From: an uncultured Gammaproteobacteria bacterium
GTDB taxonomy: Bacteria > Pseudomonadota > Gammaproteobacteria > JAURND01
DNA: 24,000 nt
NCBI GenBank assembly: GCA_963714975.1
Contig: CAVQQD010000002.1
Location: forward strand, 238,209-262,208
Direction: 5' to 3'
Part shown: positions 721 through 18,788 of the stretch, piece after piece
How the letters are laid out: the number at the start of each line of letters is the position of its first letter
How positions within the stretch are numbered: the stretch's first letter is position 1
Notes under the pieces: model-generated
What the model saw: the letters and a program-made list of their open reading frames with translations, nothing else
Databases searched by the model: none
Told to the model about the DNA's origin: nothing
Translations under genes and position numbers: made by a program

Positions 721-3700
721 GATCCTGAGTTTACGACTCTATCCAATTATGTCGCCCCGCGCAATGATCTCGAAGCTAAAGTCTGTGCCATATATGCTGA
801 AGTTTTGCATGTACCTGTTGCCAATATTGGTATTCGAGATGATTTCTTTCGATTAGGTGGTGACAGTATTGTCAGTATTCAACTCGTCAGCCGTTTACGC
901 CAACGCTTGGGATTAACGCTTAGCGTTAAAGATATTTTTACCTACAAGACCGTCGAAAAACTTTACGATAGGTTGTTGGCAGCACAGGAATTAATCAGCG
1001 GTGAAAGAGCTGATTTAGTGCTGCGTGAAAGCGGTTTACTCTCTGGTGATCTGGGGCTTTTACCGATCCAAGCCTGGTTTTTCAACCACGTGACGAATGG
1101 TTTCTATCCACAACCCGGGCATTGGAATCAAGCCTTTTTAATCAAAACAGAGAAACTTGGCCCCGCATTATTAAAACATAGCTTGGTAAAATTAATCGAG
1201 TATCACGATGCCTTCAGATTAAATTATCGCTTAACCGATGCAGGTGATTACCAACAATACTACAATCCAAGCATTAATGATAAAAACCTAGATTTTGCTT
1301 ATTTGGACATAACACCTTTCACCAATCCTGACAAATACCAACGTATTTTAACCGATTGGCAAAGTCATTTTGCATTATTCAGTGATTCGCCCTTGTATCA
1401 AATAGGATATCTGGAAAATTATCCTGATGGCAGTAGCCGTATTTTTGTCGCGCTCCATCATTTATTAATCGATGCCGTTAGTTGGCGCATCATTACTCAT
1501 GATTTACATGAACTGTATGAAAAATTAAGTGCTGCAGAAATAAATAATCAACTCGATCAAGTCATGCAACAAAGCAGTGAAACTTTACTCGGTAAAAAAG
1601 GCACTAGCTATCGTCAATGGGTAGAACAAGTGCACGCGTATGCGCATCACTCCGATGAGCAAGAATATTGGCTAACGCAATTATCCGATCTTGCCGCCAT
1701 GGAACAGCAATTAACCAATTTAGTCGTAAGTGAGACTACGAGAAACTACGTGCAATGGAGTTTGGATCGAGAAAATACTCGACGATTACTCACCGAAAGC
1801 AATCGTGCTTATCACACTGAAATCAACGATTTATTATTAACGAGTTTTGCTCGGGCATTGGTCGAATTAACCCAACAAGAAATTCATCATATTATTACCT
1901 TAGAAGGCCATGGTCGCGAAGAAATTGCACCACACCTTGATATTACGCGGACGGTAGGTTGGTTTACTACTTTGTACCCCGTTAAATTGGCAATACACCC
2001 AGAAAGTATGGCAAAATCTATTGTGCAGGTGAAAGAACATTTGCGCAAAATTCCACACAAGGGCATTGGTTATGGCGCCTTATTAGGCTATATCAATCAT
2101 CCCTTACCTCGCATCAGTTTTAATTATCTTGGCCAACTTAATGCCGGCATAGAGCAAGCTCATTGGCATATCACCGGTGAACCTTGCGGCATCACCATCG
2201 TTCCGGAAAATCCAGACCCTAATATCATTAATGCCAATGGTATAGTCACTCAAGGTGAACTACGATTTATCATAGCAGCTAAAATCAGTCAGCAAAATTT
2301 AGCACGATTTGCTGAGGCTTTTAAACAACAATTACTCTCACTGATTCAGTATACCGTCGACTTGCCACGAACGTATTTAACTGCGAGTGATATTGACGAT
2401 ATTATCAGTCAAGATTATTTAGATAAAATCCAGGATACGCGTGAAATCAGCCACGTCTATCTCGCCAATAGTTTACAGCAGGGATTTGTTTATCATGCCT
2501 TAAGTCAAGAATTAGATACTGCTTATCGCGTGCAGATCGTATTTCATTACCACAATCCTTTAGAGCCCGAATTGTTACGCATGGCTTGGCAAGGAGCATT
2601 GCACAAATATCCTGCTTTAAGACTACGATTTTCCTGGGATGAAGCCTTAGTGCAAATCATCGATCAGCATCAAGAGTTACATTGGCAATATAGCGATATC
2701 AGTGCACAAACATCAGAGTTACAAGAACAATTTATTCATGACTTAGTCAGCCAAGATCGTCAACATCCGTATCATTTAGATCAAGGGCATTTGTTGCGGA
2801 TTTTCCTAATCAAGCAAGGAGAGACACACTATACCTGTCTTTTCAGCTGCCATCATGCCATTCTTGATGGTTGGAGTAATCCTATCTTGCTGGGTTTTGT
2901 GCATGATTTGTATGAGCAACTGTATGCTAACCGCACTAACAGCACAGCACAAGCACGCATTTTATCCACAATTCAAGAAGAAACCGCCTACCCTTTAAGC
3001 CAGGCTTATTGGCAAAAAACTGATGTAGCTAGTCAAGCGTTTTGGCAACAGGAAATAGCGCGCATTACTGACCATGCGAATTTAAATGGCCTACTTCGCC
3101 CTGAGAAACGAAGCGTGCGTTTAGCAGAATATCGGTTTATTGAACATAAATCAGAGGTAGCTAGCAAAATTCAAGGACCGTTGTATCAAGCCATCAAAGC
3201 ATATTGCTCTGAGCTTGGGGTAACGGTGAATACCGTACTGCAATATGGGTGGCATAAATTGCTGAGTGTGTATGGCAATAGCCCTATTACGGTGGTGGGC
3301 ACCACAGTTTCAGGACGAAATTTACCCATTGATCATATTGAAAAATCAGTGGGTTTATATATTAATACCTTACCGTTAATCCTTGAACATGAGGATGATA
3401 AAACGATTGCCGCTCAAATAACCCTACTTCAAAACAAAATTAATGAGATCAATAGTCATAGTGCGATCAGCTTAGCGAAATTACAACACTCGGATAGCAG
3501 ATTATTTGACAGTTTATTTGTTTTTGAAAACTATCCCGTTCCACAAAAAATTGCAGACCGTGTACTTAAAGTCAGTGGCTTTCGCGGTACCGAGGAGCTG
3601 GATTATCCTTTGGCAATCATCGCCTACGAACAAGCGGAAACTCTCCAGATTAATCTAAAATATGCAAGAGAGTTATTTAGTCAAGCAACCATTACCACTT

Positions 3701-6700
3701 TATTACATAATTTAGAATTCGTGTTATACCAAATCACGGTCAGCAAAATAGCACAACCCAAAAGTCTTAACTATCTTGACTCAGACAATTACCAAAAAAT
3801 TATTTATGAGTGGAACCAAACGGAAAAAGATTACCCTGCTGATAAAACTATTCAGCAATTATTCGAAGCACAAGTCGAGAGAACGCCCGAACATATTGCT
3901 GTAGTCTTTGAAAATACTCAGCTTACCTACCACGAACTCAATGCTAAATCCAACCAACTCGCGCATTATTTACAGCAGACCTATCAGCCACAAGCCGATG
4001 ATTTAATTGCGCTATGCTTGGATCGCAGCGCACAGATGATTATCACTATTTTAGCGGTGTTAAAAGCGGGTGCCGCCTATGTGCCAATTGATCCTGGCTA
4101 TCCAGAGGAACGTATCCAGTATATTTTGCAAGATACCGACACAAAATTAGTGCTGGCTAATGTTAACCATTACGATAAATTAATTCATATAATTGAATGC
4201 GTGAGTAATAACCAATTGCCGATCCATACCGAAGCTATTGATAGTCCGGAGTTTTCCAACAAATTAAACGCGTATCAAGAAACCAATCTCAAGCAACATG
4301 TTCATAGTACTAATTTAGCTTATGTGATTTATACGAGTGGCACTACCGGAAAACCAAAGGGAGTATTACAGCAACATAATAACGTTCATCGACTATTTTC
4401 AGCAACAGAGGAACTATACCATTTTCACAGCAATGATGTATGGACGCTATTTCATTCCTACATTTTCGATTTTAGTGTATGGGAAATTTGGGGCGCTTTA
4501 TTTTATGGTGGCAAACTGTTCATCCCAAGCTACGAACAAACTAGGGATATAAGCTTATTTTATCAACTCTGTGATCAGTATGGCGTAACAGTGTTGAATC
4601 AAACTCCCACCGCCTTTTATCAATTGATCAATGCAGCTAGCGCTAACCCTCATCATCGCTTAGCTAGCCTACGATATGTTATTTTTGGTGGCGAAGCCCT
4701 GAATTTATCACAATTACTGCCTTGGTTTAATGTTTATGACTATGATAAACCCAGGTTAGTAAACATGTACGGCATAACCGAGACTACTGTCCATGTAACT
4801 TATAAACTAATACAAGCAGAAGATCTAGGAAATAGTTCCTATATAGGAGAACGGCTACCTGATCAAAAAATATATATCGTCGATGCTGACCTTAAGCCAA
4901 TACCTATTGGCGCAATTGGCGAGTTATATATCGGTGGCGCTGGAGTCGCACGCGGTTATTTAAATCTTCCTGATTTAACGGCCGAACGCTTTATCACCAA
5001 TCCCTTTCAAACAGAGGATGAAAAGAAACTCGAGAAAAATGCTCGTCTATACAAGACCGGTGATTTGGTGCGTTATCTCCCTGATGGCAATCTTGAATAT
5101 ATCGGCAGAAATGATTTTCAAGTTAAAATCCGTGGCTTTCGAATTGAGCTGGGTGAAATTGAAAATAAATTACTAGCCTATCCAGGAATCACACAAGCAG
5201 TGGTATTAGCGAGAGAACATGCAGAAACCCAGGGAAAATATTTAGTAGGTTATTATGTTGCGGAAAAATCCTTGGCGCAGGACTGCATCCTTGACTATCT
5301 AAGCGGTCAATTACCCGATTATATGCTCCCCAGCAGTTTAGTGTGGTTAGACACATTGCCCTTAACCATTAATGGTAAATTAGATCGAAATGCATTACCT
5401 GATCCTGAGTTTACGACTCTATCCAATTATGTCGCCCCGCGCAATGATCTCGAAGCTAAAGTCTGTGCCATATATGCTGAAGTTTTGCATGTACCTGTTG
5501 CCAATATTGGTATTCGAGATGATTTCTTTCGATTAGGTGGTGACAGTATTGTCAGTATTCAACTCGTCAGCCGTTTACGCCAACGCTTGGGATTAACGCT
5601 TAGCGTTAAAGATATTTTTACCTACAAGACCGTCGAAAAACTTTACGATAGGTTGTTGGCAGCACAGGAATTAATCAGCGGTGAAAGAGCTGATTTAGTG
5701 CTGCGTGAAAGCGGTTTACTCTCTGGTGATCTGGGGCTTTTACCGATCCAAGCCTGGTTTTTCAACCACGTGACGAATGGTTTCTATCCACAACCCGGGC
5801 ATTGGAATCAAGCCTTTTTAATCAAAACAGAGAAACTTGACCCCGCATTATTAAAACATAGCTTGGTAAAATTAATCGAGTATCACGATGCCTTCAGATT
5901 AAATTATCGCTTAACCGATGCAGGTGATTACCAACAATACTACAATCCAAGCATTAATGATAAAAACCTAGATTTTTCTTATTTGGACATGACACCTTTC
6001 ACCAATCCTGACCAATACCAACGTATTTTAACCGATTGGCAAAGTCATTTTGCATTATTCAGTGATTCGCCCTTATATCAAATAGGATATCTGGAAAATT
6101 ATCCTGATGGCAGTAGCCGTATTTTTGTCGCGCTCCACCATTTATTAATCGATGCCGTTAGTTGGCGCATCATTACTCATGATTTACATGAACTGTATGA
6201 AAAATTAAGTGCTGCAGAAAAAAATAATCAACTCGATCAAGTCATGCAACAAAGCAGTGAAACTTTACTCGGTAAAAAAGGCACTAGCTATCGTCAATGG
6301 GTAGAACAAGTGCACGCGTATGCGCATCACTCCGATGAGCAAGAATATTGGCTAACGCAATTATCCGATCTTGCCGCCATGGAACAGCAATTAACCAATT
6401 TAGTCGTAAGTGAGACTACGAGAAACTACGTGCAATGGAGTTTGGATCGAGAAAATACTCGACGATTACTCACCGAAAGCAATCGTGCTTATCACACTGA
6501 AATCAACGATTTATTATTAACGAGTTTTGCTCGGGCATTGGTCGAATTAACCCAACAAGAAATTCATCATATTATTACCTTAGAAGGCCATGGTCGCGAA
6601 GAAATTGCACCACACCTTGATATTACGCGGACGGTAGGTTGGTTTACTACTTTGTACCCCGTTAAATTGGCAATACACCCAGAAAGTATGGCAAAATCTA

Positions 6701-9700
6701 TTGTGCAGGTGAAAGAACATTTGCGCAAAATTCCACACAAGGGCATTGGTTATGGCGCCTTATTAGGCTATATCAATCATCCCTTACCTCGCATCAGTTT
6801 TAATTATCTTGGCCAACTTAATGCCGGCATAGAGCAAGCTCATTGGCATATCACCGGTGAACCTTGCGGCATCACCATCGTTCCGGAAAATCCAGACCCT
6901 AATATCATTAATGCCAATGGTATAGTCACTCAAGGTGAACTACGATTTACCATAGCAGCTAAAATCAGTCAGCAAAATTTAGCACGATTTGCTGAGGCTT
7001 TTAAACAACAATTACTCTCACTGATTCAGTATACCGTCGACTTGCCACGAACGTATTTAACTGCGAGTGATATTGACGATATTATCAGTCAAGATTATTT
7101 AGATAAAATCCAGGATACGCGTGAAATCAGCCACGTCTATCTCGCCAATAGTTTACAGCAGGGATTTATTTATCATGCCTTAAGTCAAGAATTAGATACT
7201 GCTTATCGCGTGCAGATCGTATTTCATTACCACAATCCTTTAGAGCCCGAATTGTTACGCATGGCTTGGCAAGGAGCATTGCACAAATATCCTGCTTTAA
7301 GACTACGATTTTCCTGGGATGAAGCCTTAGTGCAAATCATCGATCAGCATCAAGAGTTACATTGGCAATATAGCGATATCAGTGCACAAACATCAGAGTT
7401 ACAAGAACAATTTATTCATGACTTAGTCAGCCAAGATCGTCAACATCCGTATCATTTAGATCAAGGGCATTTGTTGCGGATTTTCCTAATCAAGCAAGGA
7501 GAGACACACTATACCTGTCTTTTCAGCTGCCATCATGCCATTCTTGATGGTTGGAGTAATCCTATCTTACTGGGTTTTGTGCATGATTTGTATGAGCAAC
7601 TGTATGCTAACCGCACTAACAGCACAGCACAAGCACGCATTTTATCCACAATTCAAGAAGAAACCGCCTACCCTTTAAGCCAGGCTTATTGGCAAAAAAC
7701 TGATGTAGCTAGTCAAGCGTTTTGGCAACAGGAAATAGCGCGCATTACTGACCATGCGAATTTAAATGGCCTACTTCGCCCTGAGAAACGAAGCGTGCGT
7801 TTAGCAGAATATCGGTTTATTGAACATAAATCAGAGGTAGCTAGCAAAATTCAAGGACCGTTGTATCAAGCCATCAAAGCATATTGCTCTGAGCTTGGGG
7901 TGACGGTGAATACCGTACTGCAATATGGGTGGCATAAATTGCTGAGTGTGTATGGCAATAGCCCTATTACGGTGGTGGGCACCACAGTTTCAGGACGAAA
8001 TTTACCCATTGATCATATTGAAAAATCAGTGGGTTTATATATTAATACCTTACCGTTAATCCTTGAACATGAGGATGATAAAACGATTGCCGCTCAAATA
8101 ACCCTACTTCAAAACAAAATTAATGAGATCAATAGTCATAGTGCGATCAGCTTAGCGAAATTACAACACTCGGATAGCAGATTATTTGACAGTTTATTTG
8201 TTTTTGAAAACTATCCCGTTCCACAAAAAATTGCAGACCGTGTACTTAAAGTCAGTGGCTTTCGCGGTACCGAGGAGCTGGATTATCCTTTGGCAATCAT
8301 CGCCTACGAACAAGCGGAAACTCTCCAGATTAATCTAAAATATGCAAGAGAGTTATTTAGTCAAGCAACCATTACCACTTTATTACATAATTTAGAATTC
8401 GTGTTATACCAAATCACGGTCAGCAAAATAGCACAACCCAAAAGTCTTAACTATCTTGACTCAGACAATTACCAAAAAATTATTTATGAGTGGAACCAAA
8501 CGGAAAAAGATTACCCTGCTGATAAAACTATTCAGCAACTATTTGAAGAGCAAGTCGAGAGAACGCCCGAACATATTGCTGTAGTCTTTGAAAATACCCA
8601 ACTCAGCTATCGTGATCTTAATGCCAAAGCCAATCAATTAGCTCACTACCTAAGGCACAAATATCCAATTCAAGGCGATGACTTAATTGCTTTGTGTTTA
8701 GAACGCAATGAACAGATACTCACTAGCATCTTAGCTGTGCTAAAAACTGGGGCTGCCTATGTGCCAATTGATCCAGATTATCCTGACGAAAGAATCAACT
8801 ATATTTTGGCAGATACAGCTACGCATTTGATCTTAACCAATGAAAATTCGCAAATGAAGCTAAGTGCCATTATAAACCATCATTCCTTACAAACACGAGT
8901 AGAGGCTATTGATAGTCCTGAGTTATACAACAAATTAAATGCTTATCAAGCAACAAATCCCACGCCGCCTATTCATAGTACTAATTTAGCTTATGTGATT
9001 TATACCTCAGGTTCTACCGGTCAACCTAAAGGGGTATTGATCAAACATGGAAGTTTGATCAATGCATTGCAGGCGGTAGATGCGATGATTCAAGTTTCCA
9101 GCCATGACCGCTTCTTGGCTTTAACGACATATACATTTGATATTTCTGGTTTGGAATTTTATTTACCTCTGCTTAAAGGAGCTACTTGCGTGATTGCTCC
9201 AGACAAAGCCAGAATAGATATGACTGTTCTTAAACAAATTCTTCACACCAAAGCTATAACTATCATGCAAGCCACCCCAGCTACCTGGTTAATGCTTCGT
9301 CATTCAAACTGGCAAAGCAAGAAACCATTAAAAATACTTTGTGGCGGCGAAACATTAACTATGCAACTCGCTGCCTCCTTGATTGAGAATCATCATCAAA
9401 TATGGAATATGTATGGTCCAACAGAAACTACCATTTGGTCATCCTGTTGCTTATTACAGGCTGGCAAAGTTAATCCTCCACCAATTGGAAAACCACTAGC
9501 AAATACTCAATTTTACGTGCTAGATCCCCTTACAAATCCTGTACCTATTGGAGTTACCGGTGAGTTATACATCGGAGGAGATGGTCTAGCACGAGGTTAT
9601 TTAAATCTTCCTGATTTAACTGCCGAACGTTTTGTCATCAATCCATTTCAAACAGAAAATCAGAAAAAGCACGGGAAAAATGCTCGCCTATACATGACCG

Positions 9701-12700
9701 GTGATTTAGTGCGTTATTTACCTGATGGCAATATTGAATACATTGGGAGAAATGATTTCCAAGTTAAAATCCGCGGCTTTAGAATTGAGTTGGGTGAAAT
9801 TGAAAATAAATTAATAGCCTATCCAGAAATAAAACAAGCGGTAGTGTTAGTTAAGGAACATCAAACAAACAACGAAAAATACCTCGTGGGTTATTATGTG
9901 GCAGACCAGCCACTCGATGAAAATGCTGTATTAGATTATCTGCATCATCAACTTCCTGAATACATGGTGCCTAGTGTCTTGGTTTATTTAACCCAACTAC
10001 CTTTAACCATCAGTGGGAAATTAGACCGTAGCGCATTACCTGATCCAGAATTGAGTAAAATCACTGAATATGTACCTCCTCGCAATGATTTAGAACGAAA
10101 AGTCTGTGAGATCTACGCAGCAGTTTTAGGTTTACCACCTACTTCTGTGGGCATTCGGGATAATTTCTTTCGCTTAGGGGGTAATAGTATTTTAGCTATT
10201 AAGCTTGTCAGCCAATTAAATAAGCAAATTTTTTCTGACCCCTCTTTTCAAGTAGAAAAATTAATTCAAGTCGCTGAAATTTTTCGGCATAAAACTATCT
10301 TAAGTTTATTAGACAGTCTTTTAAGCGAAGACGAAAGCGAGACCATCATTATTCCTAGCCAAGGACCTATCCAAAAAGCAGGTTTATCTTTTGCCCAAGA
10401 ACGTTTATGGTTTATTGAACAGTATGAAGTTGGAAGCAATGCCTATAATATTCCATTGTTGAAAAAAATACCTGCACAAGTCGATGCTCGATTGTTGGCA
10501 CAAGCGTTACTCTCGGTTGTATCCCGCCATGAAGTATTACATAGTTTGATCAAGACTGATAGTCAGGGTAATGGTTATCAAGAAGTCATCGACTTAAATA
10601 GTTCACCATGTAACATTGCTTATCACTCGTTCTCTGATTCTGCCGCACTTAAAAAATATATTGATACCGAAATCAATCATATTTTTAATTTAAATAGCGA
10701 ATATCCCATTAGAATTCAGCTCCTAACCCAACAAGATACTGCAACAAACTATTTGTTGATCGTGGTACATCACATCGCGTTTGATGGTTGGTCAATTGAA
10801 GTATTTATGCGTGATCTGCAAGCGCTTTATCAGCACGAGCCCTTGCCAGAATTAACCATTCAATATAAAGATTTTTCCATTTGGCAAAGGAATTATTTAA
10901 CTGGAGAACGCCTAGCCCATCAATTAAATTATTGGAAAAATAAACTTAGTGATTATGCTGGATTACATCTACCCACCGATAAACCAAGACCTCCTGAAAT
11001 TAGTTACCTAGGCAACGATGTTTATTTTAGTATTGATCCAAAGACTAGCACTCAATTAAGAGAAATTGCTAAAAAGCTAGGCATCAGTTTATACAGTGTA
11101 TTACTGGCCGGATTTAATTTGCTACTAAGAAGCTACAGCAATCAAGATGATATAGTCATAGGCACTCCCATTGCCAACCGCCACCATCAACAACTCGAAG
11201 ATCTTATCGGATTTTTTGTCAATAGTCTGGCTCTGCGCAGCCAAATAAATCCCGAGCACGCATTGAATCATTACCTAGAAGAAGTGGGTCGTGATGTGAT
11301 CGGGGCACAACTGCATCAAGATCTACCCTTTGAAAAATTGGTAGAAGAACTGGAAATTCCCAAGGATCGCAGCCGTCATCCCCTGTTCCAAGTCATGTTT
11401 GGAGTACAAAGTTTTGCAACTACAACAGCTGAATTATTGGAGCCTGCTTCTTTCACACTGAATTATCCTGTAGCGAAGTTCGATTTAAGTGTTTTTCTCG
11501 ATGATAGCTACGCCGAATTAAGGGGAAATTTTAATTATGCGGAGAGTTTATTTACGAAAGAAACCATCAATATTCTCATTGCCATCTATCAACGTATTTT
11601 GTCACAATTAGCATATGAGCCATTGCTACTAATAAAAAACTTAAGTTATCTCGATGCCACGAGTTATCAAAAAATTATTTATGAGTGGAACCAAACGGAA
11701 AAAGATTACCCTGCTGATAAAACTATTCAGCAACTATTTGAAGAGCAAGTGGCACGAACCCCTGAAAATATTGCCGTAGTTTATGAAAATACTCAGCTTA
11801 CCTACCACGAACTCAATAGCAAAGCCAATCAACTCGCGCATTATCTACAACAAACCTATCAGCCACAAGCCGATGATTTAATTGCGCTATGCTTGGATCG
11901 CAGTGAACAGATGATTATCACCATTTTAGCGGTATTAAAAACTGGCGCTGCCTATGTTCCCATCGATCTTGGTTATCCCGAGGAACGTATCCAGTATATT
12001 TTGCAAGATACTGCCACCAAGCTAGTGCTGACTAATGCCAGACATCAAGATAAATTAACTCATATAATCGACGGTGTGGGTAGTTATCAATTACTGATCA
12101 ACATCGAAGCCATTGATAGTCTTGAGTTATACAACAAATTAAATGCTTATCAAGCAACAAATCCCACGCCGCCTATTCATAGTACTAATTTAGCTTATGT
12201 GATTTATACCTCAGGTTCTACCGGTCAACCTAAAGGGGTATTGATCAAACATGGAAGTTTGATCAATGCATTGCAGGCGGTAGATGCGATGATTCAAGTT
12301 TCCAGCCATGACCGCTTCTTGGCTTTAACGACATATACATTTGATATTTCTGGTTTGGAATTTTATTTACCTCTGCTTAAAGGAGCTACTTGCGTGATTG
12401 CTCCAGACAAAGCCAGAATAGATATGACTGTTCTTAAACAAATTCTTCACACCAAAGCTATAACTATCATGCAAGCCACCCCAGCTACCTGGTTAATGCT
12501 TCGTCATTCAAACTGGCGAAGCAAGAAACCATTAAAAATACTTTGTGGCGGCGAAACATTAACTATGCAACTCGCTGCCTCCTTGATTGAGAATCATCAT
12601 CAAATATGGAATATGTATGGTCCAACAGAAACTACCATTTGGTCATCCTGTTGCTTATTACAGGCTGGTAAAGTTAATCCTCCACCAATTGGAAAACCAC

Positions 12701-15700
12701 TAGCAAATACTCAATTTTACGTGCTAGATCCCCTTACAAATCCTGTACCTATTGGAGTTACCGGTGAGTTATACATCGGAGGAGATGGTCTAGCACGAGG
12801 TTATTTAAATCTTCCTGATTTAACTGCCGAACGTTTTGTCATCAATCCATTTCAAACAGAAAATCAGAAAAAGCACGGGAAAAATGCTCGCCTATACATG
12901 ACCGGTGATTTAGTGCGTTATTTACCTGATGGCAATATTGAATACATTGGGAGAAATGATTTCCAAGTTAAAATCCGCGGCTTTAGAATTGAGTTGGGTG
13001 AAATTGAAAATAAATTAATAGCCTATCCAAAAATAAAACAAGCGGTAGTGTTAGTTAAGGAACATCAAACAAACAACGGAAAATACCTCGTGGGTTATTA
13101 TGTGGCAGACCAGCCACTCGATGAAAACGCTGTATTAGATTATCTGCATCATCAACTTCCTGAATACATGGTGCCTAGTGTCTTGGTTTATTTAACCCAA
13201 CTACCTTTAACCATCAGTGGGAAATTAGACCGTAGCGCATTACCTGATCCAGAATTGAGTAAAATCACTGAATATGTACCTCCTCGCAATGATTTAGAAC
13301 GAAAAGTCTGTGAGATCTACGCAGCAGTTTTAGGTTTACCACCTACTTCTGTGGGCATTCGGGATAATTTCTTTCGCTTAGGGGGTAATAGTATTTTAGC
13401 TATTAAGCTCGTCAGCCAATTAAATAAGCAAATTTTTTCTGACCCCTCTTTTCAAGTAGGAAAATTAATTCAAGTCGCTGAAATTTTTCGGCATAAAACT
13501 ATCTTAAGTTTATTAGACAGTCTTTTAAGCGAAGACGAAAGCGAGACCATCATTATTCCTAGCCAAGGACCTATCCAAAAAGCAGGTTTATCTTTTGCCC
13601 AAGAACGTTTATGGTTTATTGAACAGTATGAAGTTGGAAGCAATGCCTATAATATTCCATTGTTGAAAAAAATACCTGCACAAGTCGATGCTCGATTGTT
13701 GGCACAAGCGTTACTCTCGGTTGTATCCCGCCATGAAGTATTACATAGTTTGATCAAGACTGATAGTCAGGGTAATGGTTATCAAGAAGTTATCGACTTA
13801 AATAGTTCACCATTTAACATCGCTTATCACTCGTTCTCTGATTCTGCCGCACTTAAAAAATATATTGATACCGAAATCAATCATATTTTTAATTTAAATA
13901 GCGAATATCCCATTAGAATTCAGCTCCTAACCCAACAAGATACTGCAACAAACTATTTGTTGATCGTGGTACATCACATCGCGTTTGATGGTTGGTCAAT
14001 TGAAGTATTTATGCGTGATCTGCAAGCGCTTTATCAGCACGAGCCCTTGCCAGAATTAACCATTCAATATAAAGATTTTTCCATTTGGCAAAGGAATTAT
14101 TTAACTGGAGAACGCCTAGCCCATCAATTAAATTATTGGAAAAATAAACTTAGTGATTATGCTGGATTACATCTACCCACCGATAAACCAAGACCTCCTG
14201 AAATTAGTTACCTAGGCAACGATGTTTATTTTAGTATTGATCCAAAGACTAGCACTCAATTAAGAGAAATTGCTAAAAAGCTAGGCATCAGTTTATACAG
14301 TGTATTACTGGCCGGATTTAATTTGCTACTAAGAAGCTACAGCAATCAAGATGATATAGTCATAGGCACTCCCATTGCCAACCGCCACCATCAACAACTC
14401 GAAGATCTTATCGGATTTTTTGTCAATAGTCTGGCTCTGCGCAGCCAAATAAATCCCGAGCACGCATTGAATCATTACCTAGAAGAAATGGGTCGTGATG
14501 TGATCGAGGCACAACTGCATCAAGATTTACCCTTTGAAAAATTGGTAGAAGAACTGGAAATTCCCAAGGATCGCAGCCGTCATCCCCTGTTCCAAGTCAT
14601 GTTTGGAGTACAAAGTTTTGCAACTACAACAGCTGAATTATTGGAGCCTGCTTCTTTCACACTGAATTATCCTGTAGCGAAGTTCGATTTAAGTGTTTTT
14701 CTCGATGATAGCTACGCCGAATTAAGGGGAAAATTTAATTATGCGGAGAGTTTATTTACGAAAGAAACCATCAATATTCTCATTGCCACCTATCAACGTA
14801 TTTTGTCACAATTGGCATATGAGCCATTGCTACTAATAAAAAACTTAAGTTATCTCGATGCCACGAGTTATCAAAAAATTATTTATGAGTGGAACCAAAC
14901 GGAAAAAGATTACCCTGCTGATAAAACTATTCAGCAACTATTTGAAGAGCAAGTGGCACGAACCCCTGAAAATATTGCCGTAGTTTATGAAAATACTCAG
15001 CTTACCTACCACGAACTCAATAGCAAAGCCAACCAACTCGCGCATTATCTACAACAAACCTATCAGCCACAAGCCGATGATTTAATTGCGCTATGCTTGG
15101 ATCGCAGTGAACAGATGATCATTACCATTTTAGCTGTGTTAAAAGCTGGTGCTGCCTACGTACCCATCGATCCTGGTTATCCTGAAGAACGCATCCATTA
15201 TATTTTGCAAGATACTGCCACCAAGCTAGTGCTGACTAATGCCAGACATCAAGATAAATTAACTCATATAATCGACGGTGGGGGTGGTTATCAATTGCCG
15301 ATCCATATCGAAGCCATCGACAGCCCTAATTTACAAAACCAATTAAATGCTTATCAAGAGACTAATCCCATACTACATATCCATAGTAATAACTTAGCTT
15401 ATGTCATTTACACCAGTGGCACTACTGGGAATCCAAAAGGAGTGATGATTGAACATAAGAACGTTGTGAACTTAGCTGTAATGCAAGCCAAGGAATTTAG
15501 TTTATCGACACAATCGATAGATAACGCAAAAATTCTAAATTGCTTAGAATATGCAAATTATGTGTTTGATGCGCATGTTTGGGAATTATTCACAGTGATA
15601 AGTAATGGACATATCCTACATATAGCAAGTGATAGAATACGTCCAGACATAGAGCTATTATCAGAATATATTAATCTTCATAAAATTTACCTAGCAACCA

Positions 15701-15786
15701 TACCACCCGCATTATTATCGGTAGATACTTTATTGCCACTGAGCATTTTAGTAGTTGCCGGAGAAAAAACAACAAAGATATATTGA
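1..15786 (+). CDS. Non-ribosomal peptide synthetase, 5'-partial and multimodular (A-T-E, C-A-T-E, C-A-T, C-A-T, C-A'). The frame ends at TGA 15784-15786 inside the last adenylation domain.
   Basis: Frame 1 has no stop from nt 1 to 15783. I translated 1-384 by hand (IQNIYFCGEK...HVYGPTEN...GELYIGGAGVARGYLN), so the gene continues upstream of the window. Repeated canonical NRPS motifs are present: A3 YTSG(T/S)TGxPKG, A5 YGxTE, A8 GRNDFQVKIRGFRIELGEIE, A10 NGKLDR, PCP GG(D/N)S, C HHxxxDG, E HHxxxDxxSW and EGHGRE. Confidence 0.96.
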   Translation: MQNIYFCGEKASTDLISTFIDQTTVNLTHVYGPTENVVFSTYCVLNKDNITISPIGKHLNDKTLYILDTQLHPAPIGAIGELYIGGAGVARGYLNLPDLTAERFITNPFQTEDEKKLEKNARLYKTGDLVRYLPDGNLEYIGRNDFQVKIRGFRIELGEIENKLLAYPGITQAVVLAREHEETQGKYLVGYYVAEKSLAQDCILDYLSGQLPDYMLPSSLVWLDTLPLTINGKLDRNALPDPEFTTLSNYVAPRNDLEAKVCAIYAEVLHVPVANIGIRDDFFRLGGDSIVSIQLVSRLRQRLGLTLSVKDIFTYKTVEKLYDRLLAAQELISGERADLVLRESGLLSGDLGLLPIQAWFFNHVTNGFYPQPGHWNQAFLIKTEKLGPALLKHSLVKLIEYHDAFRLNYRLTDAGDYQQYYNPSINDKNLDFAYLDITPFTNPDKYQRILTDWQSHFALFSDSPLYQIGYLENYPDGSSRIFVALHHLLIDAVSWRIITHDLHELYEKLSAAEINNQLDQVMQQSSETLLGKKGTSYRQWVEQVHAYAHHSDEQEYWLTQLSDLAAMEQQLTNLVVSETTRNYVQWSLDRENTRRLLTESNRAYHTEINDLLLTSFARALVELTQQEIHHIITLEGHGREEIAPHLDITRTVGWFTTLYPVKLAIHPESMAKSIVQVKEHLRKIPHKGIGYGALLGYINHPLPRISFNYLGQLNAGIEQAHWHITGEPCGITIVPENPDPNIINANGIVTQGELRFIIAAKISQQNLARFAEAFKQQLLSLIQYTVDLPRTYLTASDIDDIISQDYLDKIQDTREISHVYLANSLQQGFVYHALSQELDTAYRVQIVFHYHNPLEPELLRMAWQGALHKYPALRLRFSWDEALVQIIDQHQELHWQYSDISAQTSELQEQFIHDLVSQDRQHPYHLDQGHLLRIFLIKQGETHYTCLFSCHHAILDGWSNPILLGFVHDLYEQLYANRTNSTAQARILSTIQEETAYPLSQAYWQKTDVASQAFWQQEIARITDHANLNGLLRPEKRSVRLAEYRFIEHKSEVASKIQGPLYQAIKAYCSELGVTVNTVLQYGWHKLLSVYGNSPITVVGTTVSGRNLPIDHIEKSVGLYINTLPLILEHEDDKTIAAQITLLQNKINEINSHSAISLAKLQHSDSRLFDSLFVFENYPVPQKIADRVLKVSGFRGTEELDYPLAIIAYEQAETLQINLKYARELFSQATITTLLHNLEFVLYQITVSKIAQPKSLNYLDSDNYQKIIYEWNQTEKDYPADKTIQQLFEAQVERTPEHIAVVFENTQLTYHELNAKSNQLAHYLQQTYQPQADDLIALCLDRSAQMIITILAVLKAGAAYVPIDPGYPEERIQYILQDTDTKLVLANVNHYDKLIHIIECVSNNQLPIHTEAIDSPEFSNKLNAYQETNLKQHVHSTNLAYVIYTSGTTGKPKGVLQQHNNVHRLFSATEELYHFHSNDVWTLFHSYIFDFSVWEIWGALFYGGKLFIPSYEQTRDISLFYQLCDQYGVTVLNQTPTAFYQLINAASANPHHRLASLRYVIFGGEALNLSQLLPWFNVYDYDKPRLVNMYGITETTVHVTYKLIQAEDLGNSSYIGERLPDQKIYIVDADLKPIPIGAIGELYIGGAGVARGYLNLPDLTAERFITNPFQTEDEKKLEKNARLYKTGDLVRYLPDGNLEYIGRNDFQVKIRGFRIELGEIENKLLAYPGITQAVVLAREHAETQGKYLVGYYVAEKSLAQDCILDYLSGQLPDYMLPSSLVWLDTLPLTINGKLDRNALPDPEFTTLSNYVAPRNDLEAKVCAIYAEVLHVPVANIGIRDDFFRLGGDSIVSIQLVSRLRQRLGLTLSVKDIFTYKTVEKLYDRLLAAQELISGERADLVLRESGLLSGDLGLLPIQAWFFNHVTNGFYPQPGHWNQAFLIKTEKLDPALLKHSLVKLIEYHDAFRLNYRLTDAGDYQQYYNPSINDKNLDFSYLDMTPFTNPDQYQRILTDWQSHFALFSDSPLYQIGYLENYPDGSSRIFVALHHLLIDAVSWRIITHDLHELYEKLSAAEKNNQLDQVMQQSSETLLGKKGTSYRQWVEQVHAYAHHSDEQEYWLTQLSDLAAMEQQLTNLVVSETTRNYVQWSLDRENTRRLLTESNRAYHTEINDLLLTSFARALVELTQQEIHHIITLEGHGREEIAPHLDITRTVGWFTTLYPVKLAIHPESMAKSIVQVKEHLRKIPHKGIGYGALLGYINHPLPRISFNYLGQLNAGIEQAHWHITGEPCGITIVPENPDPNIINANGIVTQGELRFTIAAKISQQNLARFAEAFKQQLLSLIQYTVDLPRTYLTASDIDDIISQDYLDKIQDTREISHVYLANSLQQGFIYHALSQELDTAYRVQIVFHYHNPLEPELLRMAWQGALHKYPALRLRFSWDEALVQIIDQHQELHWQYSDISAQTSELQEQFIHDLVSQDRQHPYHLDQGHLLRIFLIKQGETHYTCLFSCHHAILDGWSNPILLGFVHDLYEQLYANRTNSTAQARILSTIQEETAYPLSQAYWQKTDVASQAFWQQEIARITDHANLNGLLRPEKRSVRLAEYRFIEHKSEVASKIQGPLYQAIKAYCSELGVTVNTVLQYGWHKLLSVYGNSPITVVGTTVSGRNLPIDHIEKSVGLYINTLPLILEHEDDKTIAAQITLLQNKINEINSHSAISLAKLQHSDSRLFDSLFVFENYPVPQKIADRVLKVSGFRGTEELDYPLAIIAYEQAETLQINLKYARELFSQATITTLLHNLEFVLYQITVSKIAQPKSLNYLDSDNYQKIIYEWNQTEKDYPADKTIQQLFEEQVERTPEHIAVVFENTQLSYRDLNAKANQLAHYLRHKYPIQGDDLIALCLERNEQILTSILAVLKTGAAYVPIDPDYPDERINYILADTATHLILTNENSQMKLSAIINHHSLQTRVEAIDSPELYNKLNAYQATNPTPPIHSTNLAYVIYTSGSTGQPKGVLIKHGSLINALQAVDAMIQVSSHDRFLALTTYTFDISGLEFYLPLLKGATCVIAPDKARIDMTVLKQILHTKAITIMQATPATWLMLRHSNWQSKKPLKILCGGETLTMQLAASLIENHHQIWNMYGPTETTIWSSCCLLQAGKVNPPPIGKPLANTQFYVLDPLTNPVPIGVTGELYIGGDGLARGYLNLPDLTAERFVINPFQTENQKKHGKNARLYMTGDLVRYLPDGNIEYIGRNDFQVKIRGFRIELGEIENKLIAYPEIKQAVVLVKEHQTNNEKYLVGYYVADQPLDENAVLDYLHHQLPEYMVPSVLVYLTQLPLTISGKLDRSALPDPELSKITEYVPPRNDLERKVCEIYAAVLGLPPTSVGIRDNFFRLGGNSILAIKLVSQLNKQIFSDPSFQVEKLIQVAEIFRHKTILSLLDSLLSEDESETIIIPSQGPIQKAGLSFAQERLWFIEQYEVGSNAYNIPLLKKIPAQVDARLLAQALLSVVSRHEVLHSLIKTDSQGNGYQEVIDLNSSPCNIAYHSFSDSAALKKYIDTEINHIFNLNSEYPIRIQLLTQQDTATNYLLIVVHHIAFDGWSIEVFMRDLQALYQHEPLPELTIQYKDFSIWQRNYLTGERLAHQLNYWKNKLSDYAGLHLPTDKPRPPEISYLGNDVYFSIDPKTSTQLREIAKKLGISLYSVLLAGFNLLLRSYSNQDDIVIGTPIANRHHQQLEDLIGFFVNSLALRSQINPEHALNHYLEEVGRDVIGAQLHQDLPFEKLVEELEIPKDRSRHPLFQVMFGVQSFATTTAELLEPASFTLNYPVAKFDLSVFLDDSYAELRGNFNYAESLFTKETINILIAIYQRILSQLAYEPLLLIKNLSYLDATSYQKIIYEWNQTEKDYPADKTIQQLFEEQVARTPENIAVVYENTQLTYHELNSKANQLAHYLQQTYQPQADDLIALCLDRSEQMIITILAVLKTGAAYVPIDLGYPEERIQYILQDTATKLVLTNARHQDKLTHIIDGVGSYQLLINIEAIDSLELYNKLNAYQATNPTPPIHSTNLAYVIYTSGSTGQPKGVLIKHGSLINALQAVDAMIQVSSHDRFLALTTYTFDISGLEFYLPLLKGATCVIAPDKARIDMTVLKQILHTKAITIMQATPATWLMLRHSNWRSKKPLKILCGGETLTMQLAASLIENHHQIWNMYGPTETTIWSSCCLLQAGKVNPPPIGKPLANTQFYVLDPLTNPVPIGVTGELYIGGDGLARGYLNLPDLTAERFVINPFQTENQKKHGKNARLYMTGDLVRYLPDGNIEYIGRNDFQVKIRGFRIELGEIENKLIAYPKIKQAVVLVKEHQTNNGKYLVGYYVADQPLDENAVLDYLHHQLPEYMVPSVLVYLTQLPLTISGKLDRSALPDPELSKITEYVPPRNDLERKVCEIYAAVLGLPPTSVGIRDNFFRLGGNSILAIKLVSQLNKQIFSDPSFQVGKLIQVAEIFRHKTILSLLDSLLSEDESETIIIPSQGPIQKAGLSFAQERLWFIEQYEVGSNAYNIPLLKKIPAQVDARLLAQALLSVVSRHEVLHSLIKTDSQGNGYQEVIDLNSSPFNIAYHSFSDSAALKKYIDTEINHIFNLNSEYPIRIQLLTQQDTATNYLLIVVHHIAFDGWSIEVFMRDLQALYQHEPLPELTIQYKDFSIWQRNYLTGERLAHQLNYWKNKLSDYAGLHLPTDKPRPPEISYLGNDVYFSIDPKTSTQLREIAKKLGISLYSVLLAGFNLLLRSYSNQDDIVIGTPIANRHHQQLEDLIGFFVNSLALRSQINPEHALNHYLEEMGRDVIEAQLHQDLPFEKLVEELEIPKDRSRHPLFQVMFGVQSFATTTAELLEPASFTLNYPVAKFDLSVFLDDSYAELRGKFNYAESLFTKETINILIATYQRILSQLAYEPLLLIKNLSYLDATSYQKIIYEWNQTEKDYPADKTIQQLFEEQVARTPENIAVVYENTQLTYHELNSKANQLAHYLQQTYQPQADDLIALCLDRSEQMIITILAVLKAGAAYVPIDPGYPEERIHYILQDTATKLVLTNARHQDKLTHIIDGGGGYQLPIHIEAIDSPNLQNQLNAYQETNPILHIHSNNLAYVIYTSGTTGNPKGVMIEHKNVVNLAVMQAKEFSLSTQSIDNAKILNCLEYANYVFDAHVWELFTVISNGHILHIASDRIRPDIELLSEYINLHKIYLATIPPALLSVDTLLPLSILVVAGEKTTKIY
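748..975 (+). other. NRPS domain: PCP/T (GGDS type, as usually found before E domains)
   Basis: DDFFRLGGDSIVSIQL; phosphopantetheine Ser codon at 865-867. Confidence 0.85.
1020..2360 (+). other. NRPS domain: epimerization (E)
   Basis: LLPIQAWFF (E1), HHLLIDAVSW (HH at 1456-1461), EGHGRE 1903-1920, TVGWFTTLYPV, FNYLGQ. Confidence 0.88.
2446..3735 (+). other. NRPS domain: condensation, DCL-type (accepts a D-configured donor)
   Basis: N-terminal LANSLQQGFVYHAL (DCL-like C1) and CHHAILDGWS (HH at 2851-2856). It follows an E domain. Confidence 0.82.
3844..5400 (+). other. NRPS domain: adenylation, predicted Thr-specific
   Basis: A3 YTSGTTGKPKG 4330-4362; FDFSVWE 4465-4485. The hand-extracted 10-residue code is D F W N I G M V H K, identical to the canonical Thr code. 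Confidence 0.85.
5428..5655 (+). other. NRPS domain: PCP/T (GGDS type)
   Basis: Copy of 748-975 at +4680 nt; Ser codon at 5545-5547. Confidence 0.85.
5700..7040 (+). other. NRPS domain: epimerization (E), second copy
   Basis: Near-identical copy of 1020-2360; HH at 6136-6141. Confidence 0.88.
7126..8415 (+). other. NRPS domain: condensation, DCL-type, second copy
   Basis: Near-identical copy of 2446-3735; HHAILDG begins at 7531. Confidence 0.82.
8524..10045 (+). other. NRPS domain: adenylation, predicted Gly-specific
   Basis: FDISGLE 9136-9156, ILCGGE, WNMYGPTETTIWSS. The hand-extracted code is D I L Q L G M I W K, a 9/10 match to the canonical Gly code DILQLGLIWK. No E domain follows, which fits an achiral residue. 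Confidence 0.82.
10066..10330 (+). other. NRPS domain: PCP/T (GGNS type)
   Basis: DNFFRLGGNSILAIKL; Ser codon at 10186-10188. Confidence 0.85.
10378..11625 (+). other. NRPS domain: condensation, LCL-type
   Basis: LSFAQERLWFIEQ (LCL C1) and VVHHIAFDGWS (HH at 10768-10773). Confidence 0.85.
11728..13249 (+). other. NRPS domain: adenylation, predicted Gly-specific (second)
   Basis: The core from ~12112 onward is a near-identical copy of 8908 onward. FDISGLE at 12340-12360; same code DILQLGMIWK. Confidence 0.82.
13270..13534 (+). other. NRPS domain: PCP/T (GGNS type)
   Basis: Ser codon at 13390-13392. Confidence 0.85.
13582..14829 (+). other. NRPS domain: condensation, LCL-type (second)
   Basis: Copy of 10378-11625; HH at 13972-13977. 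Confidence 0.85.
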
Positions 15787-16455
15787 AGTTTTACCGAAAT
15801 AATCAAATAGCTGTAGTCAATGGTTATGGACCTACAGAATCGACAGTCTGCGCCACATTAAATCACTATCATGAAAATGATTTAAGTACCGACATTGGGA
15901 AACCAATCGCTAACATTACAATCTATATTTTAGATATCTATTTAAACCCAATACCGATTGGCGCGATAGGTGAACTGTACATCGGAGGAGCCGGGCTAGC
16001 CCGCGGCTATTTAAATCTTCCTGATTTAACTGCCGAACGTTTTATCCCCAATCTATTTCAAACAGAAGACGAAAAGAAATTTGGAAAAAATACACGCCTC
16101 TATAAGACCGGTGATTTAGTGCGTTATCTTCCTGATGGCAATCTCGAATATATCGGCAGAAATGATTTTCAAGTTAAAATCCGTGGTTTTAGAATTGAGC
16201 TGGGTGAAATTGAAAATAAATTAATAGCCTACCCAGAAATAAAACAAGCGGTAGTGTTAGTTAAGGAACATCAAACAAACAACGAAAAATACCTTGCGGG
16301 CTACTATGTTGCAGACCAACCACTCGATGAAAACGCTATGTTAGATTATCTACATCATCAACTTCCTGAATACATGGTGCCTAGTGTCTTGGTTTATTTA
16401 ACCCAACTACCTTTAACCATCAATGGGAAATTAGATCGTAGCGCATTACCTGATC
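14932..16455 (+). other. NRPS domain: adenylation, Phe-like (aromatic) code, interrupted by the frameshift at ~15770
   Basis: A3 YTSGTTGNPKG ~15409-15441; FDAHVWE 15565-15585. The code assembled across the frameshift is D A W T V A G V C K. It is closest to Phe codes: 7/10 identical to GrsA DAWTIAAICK, and the three differences are conservative. Confidence 0.7.
15763..15786 (+). other. Frameshift site that splits the last A domain, beside the run a6 at 15764-15769. Frame 1 stops at 15784-15786 and frame 3 carries on.
   Basis: Frame 1 reads VVAGEKTTKIY*. Frame 3 reads ..KNNKDILKFYRNNQIAVVNGYGPTE and is open from 15684. Either a 1-nt gain between 15772 and 15780 (giving ..GEKTTKDILKFY..) or a -1 slip on the A-run (giving ..GEKNNKDILKFY..) restores a normal-length A4-A5 spacer. 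Compare FCGEKASTDLISTFIDQTTVNLTHVYGPTE at nt 19-105. Confidence 0.85.
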
Positions 16456-17474
16456 CAGAATTGAGTAAAATCACTGAATATGTACCTCCTCGCAATGATT
16501 TAGAACGAAAAGTCTGTGATATTTACGCAGCAGTTTTAGGTTTACCACCTACTTCTGTGGGCATTCGGGATAATTTCTTTCGCTTAGGGGGTAATAGTAT
16601 TCTTGCAGTCAAATTAATCGCACTATTAAATAAAAAGTGTAATACTTATTTAAAAGTTGCAGAATTGTTTAGTTCTAAATCTATTCTAGATTTAATAAAA
16701 CTAATAACAACAATGCGTATAAAATATAAGACCATTGTAAAGCTTAATAATGCTAAAAATAAACCATTAATGTTAATGATCCATCCAGGTAATGGTGGGT
16801 GTGAAGTTTACGCAGATTTAGCAAAACGCTCGTCCAATTTTTATGCTTGTTATGGCATAGATAATTATAACTTATATCATAGAGATAAATTTCAAACGCT
16901 GCACAGTCTATCTAATTACTACTTAAGTCTTATAGAAAAACAATTTGACTTAAACAACAAACAAACTGAAATCATATTATTTGGGTGGTCATTAGGGGGT
17001 TTAATTAGTCTTGAAATAGCCAATATCCTAGAGCAACGTAGTCATACTCGCATAAGAGTTTATTTATTAGATACTATTATCGACGACGAACAATTGACAC
17101 AACTAAAACAATTAAATGAAAAAATAATTAAAAAACAAATTTATGAATATTTTAAGAAAAATTATAATAAAAATTATGCACGAAAAATCATTGATAACTT
17201 TAGTATCGAAGAAAAAATAGGTCATGAAAAGATTTCTGATTTTTTGCGTTATACAAAAATAACTTTATTCAAAGCCATGCAGAAAGATACCACAATTGAA
17301 GCAACTGCTTCAATTGGTGAATATATCGAAAATTTACCCTACAACAATGTAGACAAAATTGTACGCGATCTTTCTCAACTGACGGTTGTTAATGTCGAGC
17401 AGGCTAATCACTCAAACATTCTGAAATTTCAGGAAATATTGTTACAGCACTTAGTTAGTCCAAAAATTCTCTAA
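15783..17474 (+). CDS. NRPS terminal fragment in frame 3: the remainder of the last A domain (A5-A10), a PCP and a thioesterase. It is a continuation of the upstream ORF across a frameshift, not an independent gene.
   Basis: The translation begins mid-domain (..[13 protein letters not shown] = A5) and continues with [45 protein letters not shown] and NGKLDR. It then shows PCP [8 protein letters not shown] (Ser codon 16596-16598) and the TE motif GWSLGG (16983-17000). The TTG 'start' at 15783 has no RBS logic. Confidence 0.9.
   Translation: [563 protein letters not shown]
16480..16700 (+). other. NRPS domain: terminal PCP/T
   Basis: [16 protein letters not shown]; Ser codon at 16596-16598. 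Confidence 0.8.
16740..17471 (+). other. NRPS domain: type I thioesterase (chain release)
   Basis: [16 protein letters not shown] (GxSxG) at 16983-17000, and a C-terminal position in the synthetase. The middle of the domain is very Lys/Asn/Ile-rich. Confidence 0.8.
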
Positions 17475-17526
17475 TTCCTTGAGGAAGTTTGATTTGGGTC
17501 TTAGCCTTATAACGCATCTCATATAC

Positions 17527-17850
17527 CTATCCGATGCACATAAATCGGTCAGCAATTCTCGCTGAAACCCTATTCCCCGACGGGTCCTGCCGCGGCACCC
17601 CACCGTGCTCGTAGCATCATATCCCTTCTCCCACAATGCTTTTTTGTGGGAGAAAAGGTGGCCGCCAGGCCGAATGAGGGTGTTTGAAATGGCTATAAGA
17701 AGGGATATGATGCTACTGCGCGCGATGGGGTCCCCGCCTCCACGTCACCCGCCGGTGTAATGACGGAGCAGGAGAATTGTTGCTTTTTTTTGATCTCATT
17801 GATCCGTGATAAGGCTTCAGTGGGAATTGCTGACCGAGTGCATCGGATAG
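17527..17850. repeat. GC-rich foldback element with nested inverted repeats (MITE- or REPIN-like), non-coding
   Basis: Outer inverted repeat: 17527-17539 with 17838-17850 (13/13) and 17545-17558 with 17824-17837 (14/14), with a 5-nt bulge at 17540-17544. Inner inverted repeat: gtagcatcatatcccttct 17611-17629 with 17698-17716 (19/19), extending imperfectly to ~17594 and ~17733. Central hairpin: ttctcccaca 17626-17635 with tgtgggagaa 17645-17654 (10 bp, 9-nt loop). Confidence 0.75.
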
Positions 17851-17977
17851 CTCCCACAAGGGGAGAAGGAAAATCTACCCACTCGATTCTACATAGAACC
17901 AAAATTATTTTATTGAAAATTGATTTTTGCATGATACAGTGGCCAGTAATATTTAAGGTTTTTAAAAGGAGATAGGA

Positions 17978-18715: not shown

Positions 18716-18740
18716 TATGAAGTGGTTCTGGCCTGTGGGG

Positions 18741-18784: not shown

Positions 18785-18788
18785 ATGG

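Follow-up and report, generated by a model that had tools for sequence, protein, structure and literature searches.

The window analysed here is a 24,000-nucleotide (nt) stretch of DNA from an uncultured Gammaproteobacteria bacterium (assembly GCA_963714975.1, contig CAVQQD010000002.1, positions 238,209 to 262,208 of the forward strand). A giant nonribosomal peptide synthetase (NRPS) gene is present with its 3′ 17.5 kb, which comprise the last five modules with the domain order A0 (C-terminal part)-T-E-C / A1-T-E-C / A2-T-C / A3-T-C / A4-T-TE, where A, C, T, E and TE denote adenylation, condensation, thiolation, epimerization and thioesterase domains. Comparison of the modules with each other reveals that the gene is a recombinational mosaic with sharp and statistically supported transitions. 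The domains are recognised through Condensation, AMP-binding, AMP-binding_C, PP-binding and Thioesterase matches in Pfam and NCBIfam, and the E domains through TIGR01720 and the HHLLIDA motif. The repeated C-A-T modules and the terminal thioesterase, along with the motifs A1-A10, FFxxGGxS and HHxxxD, all of which could be located, identify the product as a modular NRPS.

The substrates of the four complete A domains are predicted to be Thr (A1), Gly (A2), Gly (A3) and a Phe-like residue (A4), which agrees with the pocket identities given in an earlier note on this DNA. The ten-residue specificity codes, taken from motif-anchored positions in the translated A-domain alignment, read DFWNIGMVHK in A1 and DILQLGMIWK in both A2 and A3, and the Phe-like assignment is made by resemblance, the A4 code DAWTVAGVCK being similar, but not identical, to the Phe code DAWTIAAICK. 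The codes of the first three domains match the known Thr-type and Gly codes, respectively (PMC12283262). The motif A10 reads SGKLDR in both Gly modules (10012-10029 and 13216-13233) and NGKLDR in the other three. The C-domain ends that precede the A domains are of two kinds, with about 47% nt identity between and 99-100% within the kinds, and group as (A1,A2)(A3,A4), which confirms the two C-domain types noted earlier upstream of the C-A linker. Their naming is positional: the C domains that follow an E domain would be of the DCL subtype and those that follow a T domain of the LCL subtype, a TIGR01720 E domain preceding two of them.

The reading frame is interrupted once, within A4, by a −1 frameshift next to a run of six A that the earlier note had overlooked. 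Frame 0 reads ...VVAGEKTTKIY* with a TGA stop at 15784-15786, the other frame goes on as ...KDILKFYRNNQIAVVNGYGPTE, and insertion of a single A yields an intact A4 domain. This is the sole frame break in 17.5 kb containing 33 homopolymer runs (A/T of at least 6, G/C of at least 5), and it is either a newly broken synthetase or a homopolymer sequencing error. A protein identical to the 563-aa terminal NRPS protein encoded in the shifted frame is on record.

Duplicated blocks and joints between the modules

The repeats were mapped by self-BLAST and mismatch lists, and the breakpoints were tested on informative-site triplets with 20,000 permutations; the coordinates of all features are collected in Table 1. 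The clearest of the repeats, block V, consists of two in-frame copies at a constant offset of 3204 nt, which differ by 16 substitutions in 2910 nt (8919-11828 versus 12123-15032), and the similarity goes on, with divergent patches, to about 12076 and 15280, respectively. The edges of the block are in register: 8919 plus 3204 gives 12123, which is the point where A3 ceases to resemble A4, and the outer edge lies at approximately 15326. Since the copies are adjacent and in register, V is a tandem duplication of a 3204-nt unit, and the constant period and registered outer edges are accompanied by a hybrid domain at the joint. The switch of parents in A3 falls within 12111-12114, with informative sites A4-like by 253 to 6 before it and A2-like by 433 to 1 after it (chi-square 663, permutation p = 5e-5). 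A3 is therefore a hybrid A domain, with a foreign N-terminal third of the Phe-like type and a Gly core.

Together with a second large repeat, block U (below), the duplication accounts for most of the junction pattern. The Gly pair clearly represents one core duplicated together with its A subdomain (Asub), T and C domains and the N-terminus of the next A domain, and between the EAIDS motif and the stretch before motif A6 the two Gly modules are 99.6-100% identical. The description of this stretch as module-specific in the earlier note thus holds for A1 and A4, each of which is unique there, but not for the Gly modules. In the preceding region, from motif A1 to EAIDS, A1 is 84.7% identical to A3 and A4, A3 and A4 are 93.6% identical to each other and all three are 62-65% identical to A2, in agreement with the reported sharing of the A1-A2 motif region by the Thr, second Gly and Phe-like modules and not by the first Gly module. 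A4 has this N-terminus in common with A3 because of the same 3204-nt duplication.

Two further observations concern the surroundings of the V joint. An 80-nt patch (11916-11994 versus 15120-15198) carries 13 differences, mostly at third codon positions and with some states matching A1 or A2, in a block that is otherwise 99.5% identical, and resembles a minor conversion patch of separate origin, its donor being unseen. A3 also has three private Pro-to-Leu changes near the joint, at 11968-11970 (VPIDLGYP, motif A2), 12094-12096 (QLLINIE) and 12121-12123 (EAIDSLELY), where all other modules have Pro. The possibility that the diverged stretch at the joint is a mixture left by repair of an A2/A4 heteroduplex was discarded, as the differences between A3 and A4 match A1, A2 or neither.

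The second large repeat, block U, has a constant offset of 4680 nt, and its left edge is sharp at 221/222. On its right side A1 has four private changes at 3859-3870, and the haplotype common to A1 and A2 extends up to 3917. The switch in A1 is placed at 3908-3918, with sites A2-like by 159 to 0 before it and 16 to 86 after it (A3-like at 86 of 102), and A1 turns A0-like between 4901 and 4911. The repeat does not fill its period, as 3637-3696 of the 4680 nt are common to the two copies and the 984-nt Thr core between them matches neither neighbour. The Thr module alone combines near-identical flanks (99.7%), a divergent pocket and sharp breakpoints. The pattern does not extend to all four complete modules, as the Gly cores are duplicates of each other and the N-terminus of the Phe-like domain is shared via the duplication. 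Movement is demonstrable for the blocks between the cores.

Within the C-A linker, a 66-nt block (J1) is identical at all four sites listed in the earlier note and can be extended by not a single base at either end. No other run of four-way identity in the alignment comes near it in length, which is far above chance, position shuffles in its neighbourhood giving runs of 12 nt on average and 28 nt at most (p < 2e-4). All 21 of its 21 codons other than those for Met and Trp are identical in every pair of modules, but among the following 20 codons only 8 of 16 that encode identical residues are so between A1 and A3; J1 is therefore a nucleotide-level anomaly beyond protein constraint. The four copies are nevertheless not independent and reduce to two lineages via the repeats U and V. 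Before these two recent duplications J1 was an 83-nt identity between just two modules, and it belongs among the older events. No exact match to the 32-nt core of J1 was found in genome contigs or metagenome contigs, and its predicted RNA structure is unremarkable (z = −1.1). The window has one E. coli-type Chi site, at 22540, which is no more than expected by chance.

The other two junctions that had been proposed as nucleotide-identical fare differently. EAIDS is conserved as protein only and occurs in four distinct nucleotide versions, GAAGCTATTGATAGT, GAGGCTATTGATAGT, GAAGCCATTGATAGT and GAAGCCATCGACAGC. The 23-mer encoding YLNLPDL (J3) is exact at all five sites, as was claimed, but it is neither exceptional nor a breakpoint: it lies in 270 nt of which 78% are identical in all five modules (shuffle p = 0.155), a second 23-nt run with five-way identity is found at 5150-5172 and its four homologous sites, at the end of motif A8 (RIELGEIE), and the real edge, at 4901-4911, is 46-56 nt upstream. 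For these reasons the 23-mer was rejected as a recombination junction. Its five copies reduce to three lineages through U and V.

An additional, older tract is present in the last module, where A4 turns A2/A3-like between 16200 and 16237, and mismatches between A4 and A3 restart directly after FFRLGGNS, at 16598. Informative sites in A4 (A0/A1 type to A2/A3 type) number 13:12 between motifs A6 and A7, 9:2 between A7 and A8 (p = 0.065) and 7:118 from the end of A8 to the T motif. Of the chimeric Asub described in the earlier note, the A2/A3-like second half is therefore strong and the A0/A1-like first half weak.

When considered segment by segment, the modules group in conflicting ways. J1 is equal in all of them; from motif A1 to EAIDS the A3, A4 and A1 domains stand together against A2; from EAIDS to the stretch before A6 only A2 and A3 pair, with A1 and A4 unique; from A6 to A8 the groups are (A0,A1) and (A2,A3) with A4 apart; from A8 to the T motif A4 joins A2 and A3 against (A0,A1); and after the T motif the grouping returns to (A0,A1), (A2,A3) and A4. 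Both the sharp transitions and the incongruent groupings that had been named as signs of recombination are thus present. Each joint lies at or next to a conserved motif. Three precede the motif concerned, WNQTE by 18 nt, LTYHEL (motif A1) by 4-14 nt and GELYIGG (motif A6) by 7-17 nt; one falls on EAIDS, located 90 nt upstream of motif A3, and two coincide with the ends of A8 and of FFRLGGNS. As a consequence, the divergent pockets appear as islands.

Table 1 Coordinates of the NRPS reading frames, repeats, joints and module-specific regions in the 24,000-nt window.
Feature	Position	Strand	Remarks
NRPS, frame 0	1-15786	+	Open from the window edge; no stop before 15784; ends at a stop made by the frameshift
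NRPS remainder, shifted frame	15783-17474	+	A4 motifs A5-A10, T, thioesterase
−1 frameshift interval	15764-15779	+	Inside A4, between the GGE/AGEK stretch and motif A5; includes the run of six A at 15764-15769
Block V, copy I	8919-12122	+	Gly core, Asub, T, C, J1 and N-terminus of the next A domain
Block V, copy II	12123-15326	+	Same unit, in-frame
V joint in A3, at EAIDS	12106-12124	+	GAAGCC matches A4, ATTGATAGT matches A2
N-terminal region of the first Gly A domain (A2)	8556-8918	+	Own type, 62-65% identical to the other three
Phe-like A core	15327-15952	+	Unique; holds the binding pocket; extends from motif A3 to immediately upstream of A6; contains the frameshift
Block U, copy I	222-3858	+	Begins 16 nt upstream of motif A6; comprises Asub, T, E and the following C; ends with J1
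Block U, copy II	4902-8538	+	12 substitutions in 3637 nt versus copy I
Thr A-core island (A1)	3918-4901	+	Between the U copies; 3918-4230 84.7% identical to the A3/A4 N-terminus; 4363-4901 unique pocket, 41-52%
J1, copy 1	3793-3858	+	66 nt, QKIIYEWNQTEKDYPADKTIQQ; WNQTE at 3811-3825
J1, copy 2	8473-8538	+	Identity with copies 3 and 4 runs on to 8555 (83 nt)
J1, copy 3	11668-11733	+	Exact match
J1, copy 4	14872-14937	+	Exact match
J3, 23-mer (YLNLPDL)	4957-4979	+	Other copies at 277, 9598, 12802 and 16008; within the conserved A6-A8 stretch
Older tract in the last module	16224-16598	+	End of A8 to FFRLGGNS; 96% to the A2/A3 type, 67% to the A0/A1 type; 7:118 sites

Genes downstream of the synthetase

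The NRPS stop codon is followed by a 500-nt spacer (17475-17977), which has only short overlapping open reading frames (ORFs) with Arg/Pro/Gly-rich translations and no Rfam match, and then by genes for a short-chain dehydrogenase, a Dps/ferritin protein and a branch-2 histidine phosphatase, a split DDE transposase gene and a fragmented icd. The short-chain dehydrogenase region (18001-19000) has 48.7% G+C, versus 34-42% in the NRPS part, and may be of foreign origin. The transposase, about 3.6 kb downstream of the NRPS gene (21105-22342), is a frameshifted or degraded insertion sequence, encoded as two overlapping ORFs of 320 and 133 aa in different frames. On the reverse strand at 22813-24000, isocitrate dehydrogenase is spread over all three frames, which change at least five times within about 1.2 kb, and each of the fragments is strongly similar to the isocitrate dehydrogenase of an uncultured gammaproteobacterial metagenome-assembled genome (best match 87%), a similarity that assigns the source to the Gammaproteobacteria in broad terms. 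This points to a pseudogene or to locally poor sequence, and the density of frame breaks contrasts with that in the NRPS gene. No Rfam families or tRNAs were detected in the window, a megablast search of the downstream genes against plasmids gave no match, and the neighbouring proteins were singletons on cluster look-up, with no close relative in the collections searched.

Origin of the mosaic

The repeats and breakpoints suggest that the mosaic arose by intragenic homologous recombination between paralogous modules, involving both unequal crossing-over and gene conversion, a reading to which we assign a probability of roughly 0.8. In the first of two proposed events, an unequal exchange at EAIDS between A2 (Gly) and the ancestral A4 (Phe-like) would have generated the in-frame 3204-nt tandem duplication and thereby an additional Gly module with a hybrid A domain. 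In the second, the 3.64-kb U block would have been copied by one conversion over an older inter-core region, so as to flank the Thr core. Both events would be very recent, with 0.3-0.55% divergence, and older exchanges with 4-15% divergence probably account for the Gly-type tract from Asub to the T motif in the last module, for the N-terminal A region common to three of the four A domains (A1 being 85% identical to A3/A4) and for the 66-83-nt identical C-A linker stretch in modules behind the two kinds of C domain. The location of the joints at conserved motifs would be explained if the paralogues are similar enough to pair there and the resulting in-frame hybrids are likely to fold, which is also how the literature accounts for such joints (PMC8097286; bioRxiv 10.1101/2022.12.02.518901). 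The copies of U and V differ by substitutions only, 28 in total, of which 17 are nonsynonymous and 11 synonymous compared to an expectation of 78% nonsynonymous for random single-base changes, so that purifying selection after the events was probably mild at most. The repeats and the breakpoints with their significance are shown by the data, and the mechanism of recombination, the direction of the individual transfers and the functionality of the products are inferred.

Several points weigh against this account. At the V joint, perfect identity between A2 and A4 is limited to 2-3 nt, and for that reason a microhomology-mediated or homeologous exchange fits better there than a classical RecA crossover. 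Over its final ~290 nt the V unit is ~8-10% diverged, compared to 0.55% elsewhere, with mostly third-codon changes of mixed affinities, and one clean event fails to account for this diverged end. The frameshift in A4 puts the functionality of the whole gene in question. Finally, no orthologue or outgroup was found in the collections searched, where the best protein relatives are 51-52% identical, and the direction and order of the events can therefore not be rooted. Protein searches with the T-TE end and with the first 1264 aa returned no relative above 52% identity and not the full-length protein either, and all hits among the matches listed were of 2211 aa or less; several of the better-scoring named NRPS matches are from Chryseobacterium, Rickettsiaceae, Legionellaceae and Xenorhabdus.

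The earlier note had viewed the A core as an exchangeable cassette bounded by three nucleotide-identical junctions. Such a model, in which the A cores are mobile cassettes in a constant scaffold, inserted by double crossovers at the C-A linker or EAIDS on the left and after A6 on the right, draws on the sharply bounded Thr core between its near-identical flanks and on published work in which natural A-core swaps are the commonest event (PMC8097286). A single crossover is indeed ruled out for the Thr module since A1 resembles neither A2 nor that part of A0 which is visible, and a simple one-crossover duplication is accordingly insufficient. Still, the Thr flanks are two copies of one block, and on parsimony we favour a single copy-paste of U by conversion over a core swap, because duplication plus core replacement would need two events and an unseen donor; none for the Thr core is present in the window, and the upstream part of the gene, where a donor for this core or for A0 might be sought, lies outside it. 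Moreover, the Gly pair was duplicated and not exchanged, the shared N-terminus of the Phe-like module follows from the same duplication, and of the three junctions only J1 is anomalous, EAIDS not being identical at the nucleotide level and the 23-mer being neither special nor a breakpoint. With the Thr core as the only island, exchange of cores appears unlikely as the origin of the mosaic. Somewhat less likely still would be a history of old modules without recent gain, in which concerted evolution by gene conversion homogenises everything except the selected pockets. Conversion is known to homogenise assembly-line modules and to blur their duplication histories (PMC9205934), the tract at 16224-16598 (96%) and the patches at 11916-11994 resemble conversion tracts and block U is compatible with such a process. 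The identity in V, however, runs at one offset continuously over the core, Asub, T, C and the next N-terminus, includes the Gly pocket and ends in register, which is the signature of a tandem duplication and not of homogenisation around a protected core.

With more than 99% identity over 2.9-3.6 kb, the repeats are hard to assemble, and the frameshifted NRPS gene, the heavily frameshifted icd and the split transposase could signal trouble with sequence quality, so that near-identical repeats might have been mis-joined or mis-counted. Against this, the differences between the copies amount to 28 substitutions, with indels absent, every joint is in frame, the 15.8-kb frame is unbroken despite the homopolymer runs in the gene, and the 1.24-Mb source contig suggests long-read support; in view of the in-frame joints and the substitution-only differences, an assembly artefact is unlikely, to the point that we would be surprised to find one. 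Constraint on protein sequence or codon usage, acting without any recombination, would be adequate to explain the 23-mer, given its shuffle statistics and the equally long run at the A8 motif, and also EAIDS. It fails for J1, where no synonymous difference exists in 21 codons and half of the neighbouring identical residues differ in codon, and it leaves the kilobase tracts of more than 99% identity and the parent switches unexplained; on the codon, mismatch and breakpoint evidence, constraint alone was rejected for J1, U and V and its chances of explaining the junctions are negligible.

The recombination history proposed above can also be extended in a direction that we regard as a long shot, namely that J1, 66-83 nt in length, is no mere by-product but is kept identical downstream of C domains of either kind and serves homologous recombination as a permanent 'splice site', through which modules are gained, lost and reshuffled at high frequency. 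If so, the gene would show an assembly line in the midst of its diversification, and nature would already have validated the joints at EAIDS and ahead of A6 as fusion points so far unused in engineering.

Relation to known recombination and engineering sites

In the NRPS clusters analysed by Baunach et al. (2021, PMC8097286), breakpoints in the A cores lie near core motifs, and T-E-DCL units are exchanged from A8 to the A1 motif of the next module. The present gene similarly has sharp nucleotide breakpoints inside A domains near motifs, retains the C-A linker and the Asub-T interface together and has pocket stretches that differ between otherwise near-identical modules, and the A8-to-A1 exchange of T-E-DCL closely resembles block U. 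In contrast, recombination here involves paralogous modules of one gene instead of orthologous clusters, with donor and recipient unassignable, block U begins before A6 and not at A8, and the clearest event is a module duplication, a class of event left untreated in that paper, from the text of which the word 'duplication' is absent.

Intragenic duplication of modules by unequal crossing-over has been described for assembly-line genes (Booth et al. 2022, PMC9205934, citing Medema et al. 2014). As in those cases, an in-frame tandem repeat of module length adds a module of the same specificity, here Gly-Gly, but its endpoints lie inside A domains, at EAIDS between the A2 and A3 motifs, so that the unit is core-Asub-T-C-(N-terminus) and a hybrid A domain is formed; the divergence of 0.55% also allows the joint to be read within 3 nt. 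Recombination of A domains within a genome is known from the wollamide/desotamide pathway (Booth et al. 2022, PMC9205934), where, as here, the recombinant A domain keeps the C-A interface and has its P-loop and pocket from another parent, and was likewise found by sliding-window identity and RDP-type tests. There, however, the hybrid had its donor in a separate NRPS locus and was confirmed by biochemical work, whereas the hybrid described here involves neighbouring modules and is read from sequence alone.

A breakpoint in the T motif FFxxGGxS has been reported previously (bioRxiv 10.1101/2022.12.02.518901), and engineered fusions have been made at the WNATE C-A linker (XU), by A-subdomain swaps and inside FFxxGGxS (XUT) (PMC11546977; bioRxiv 10.1101/2022.12.02.518901). 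The switches in the present gene occur in comparable places: one is within 18 nt on the upstream side of WNQTE, and others fall in the A core, at the hinge of A8 and immediately behind FFRLGGNS. They are natural joints of closely related paralogues and not designed fusions of unrelated synthetases. Neither the EAIDS joint nor the one before A6 is known to be in standard use as an engineering site. The gene can in this sense be regarded as a natural example of the recombination points used in engineering, as the earlier note suggested, with transitions at or beside the WNxTE linker, the A core, the A8 hinge and the T motif, but not one of exchanged A-core cassettes.

Thanks to the divergence of only 0.3-0.55%, this one gene has six natural joints that are resolved to a few bases, which provides NRPS engineers with a compact natural set of in-frame hybrid junctions, including a directly testable hybrid A domain. 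It also calls for caution, as nucleotide-identical 'junctions' counted over several modules may mark where a small number of large duplications end and not be independent exchange points. The individual elements, that is, breakpoints in A cores, retention of the C-A linker and Asub-T interface, T-E-C exchange, duplication, conversion, a breakpoint in the T motif and the WNATE fusion point, are already published. The current picture of NRPS evolution is thereby unchanged, and the mosaic is not a new kind of system, but a fresh and compact example of a known process in an otherwise unrepresented gammaproteobacterial lineage.

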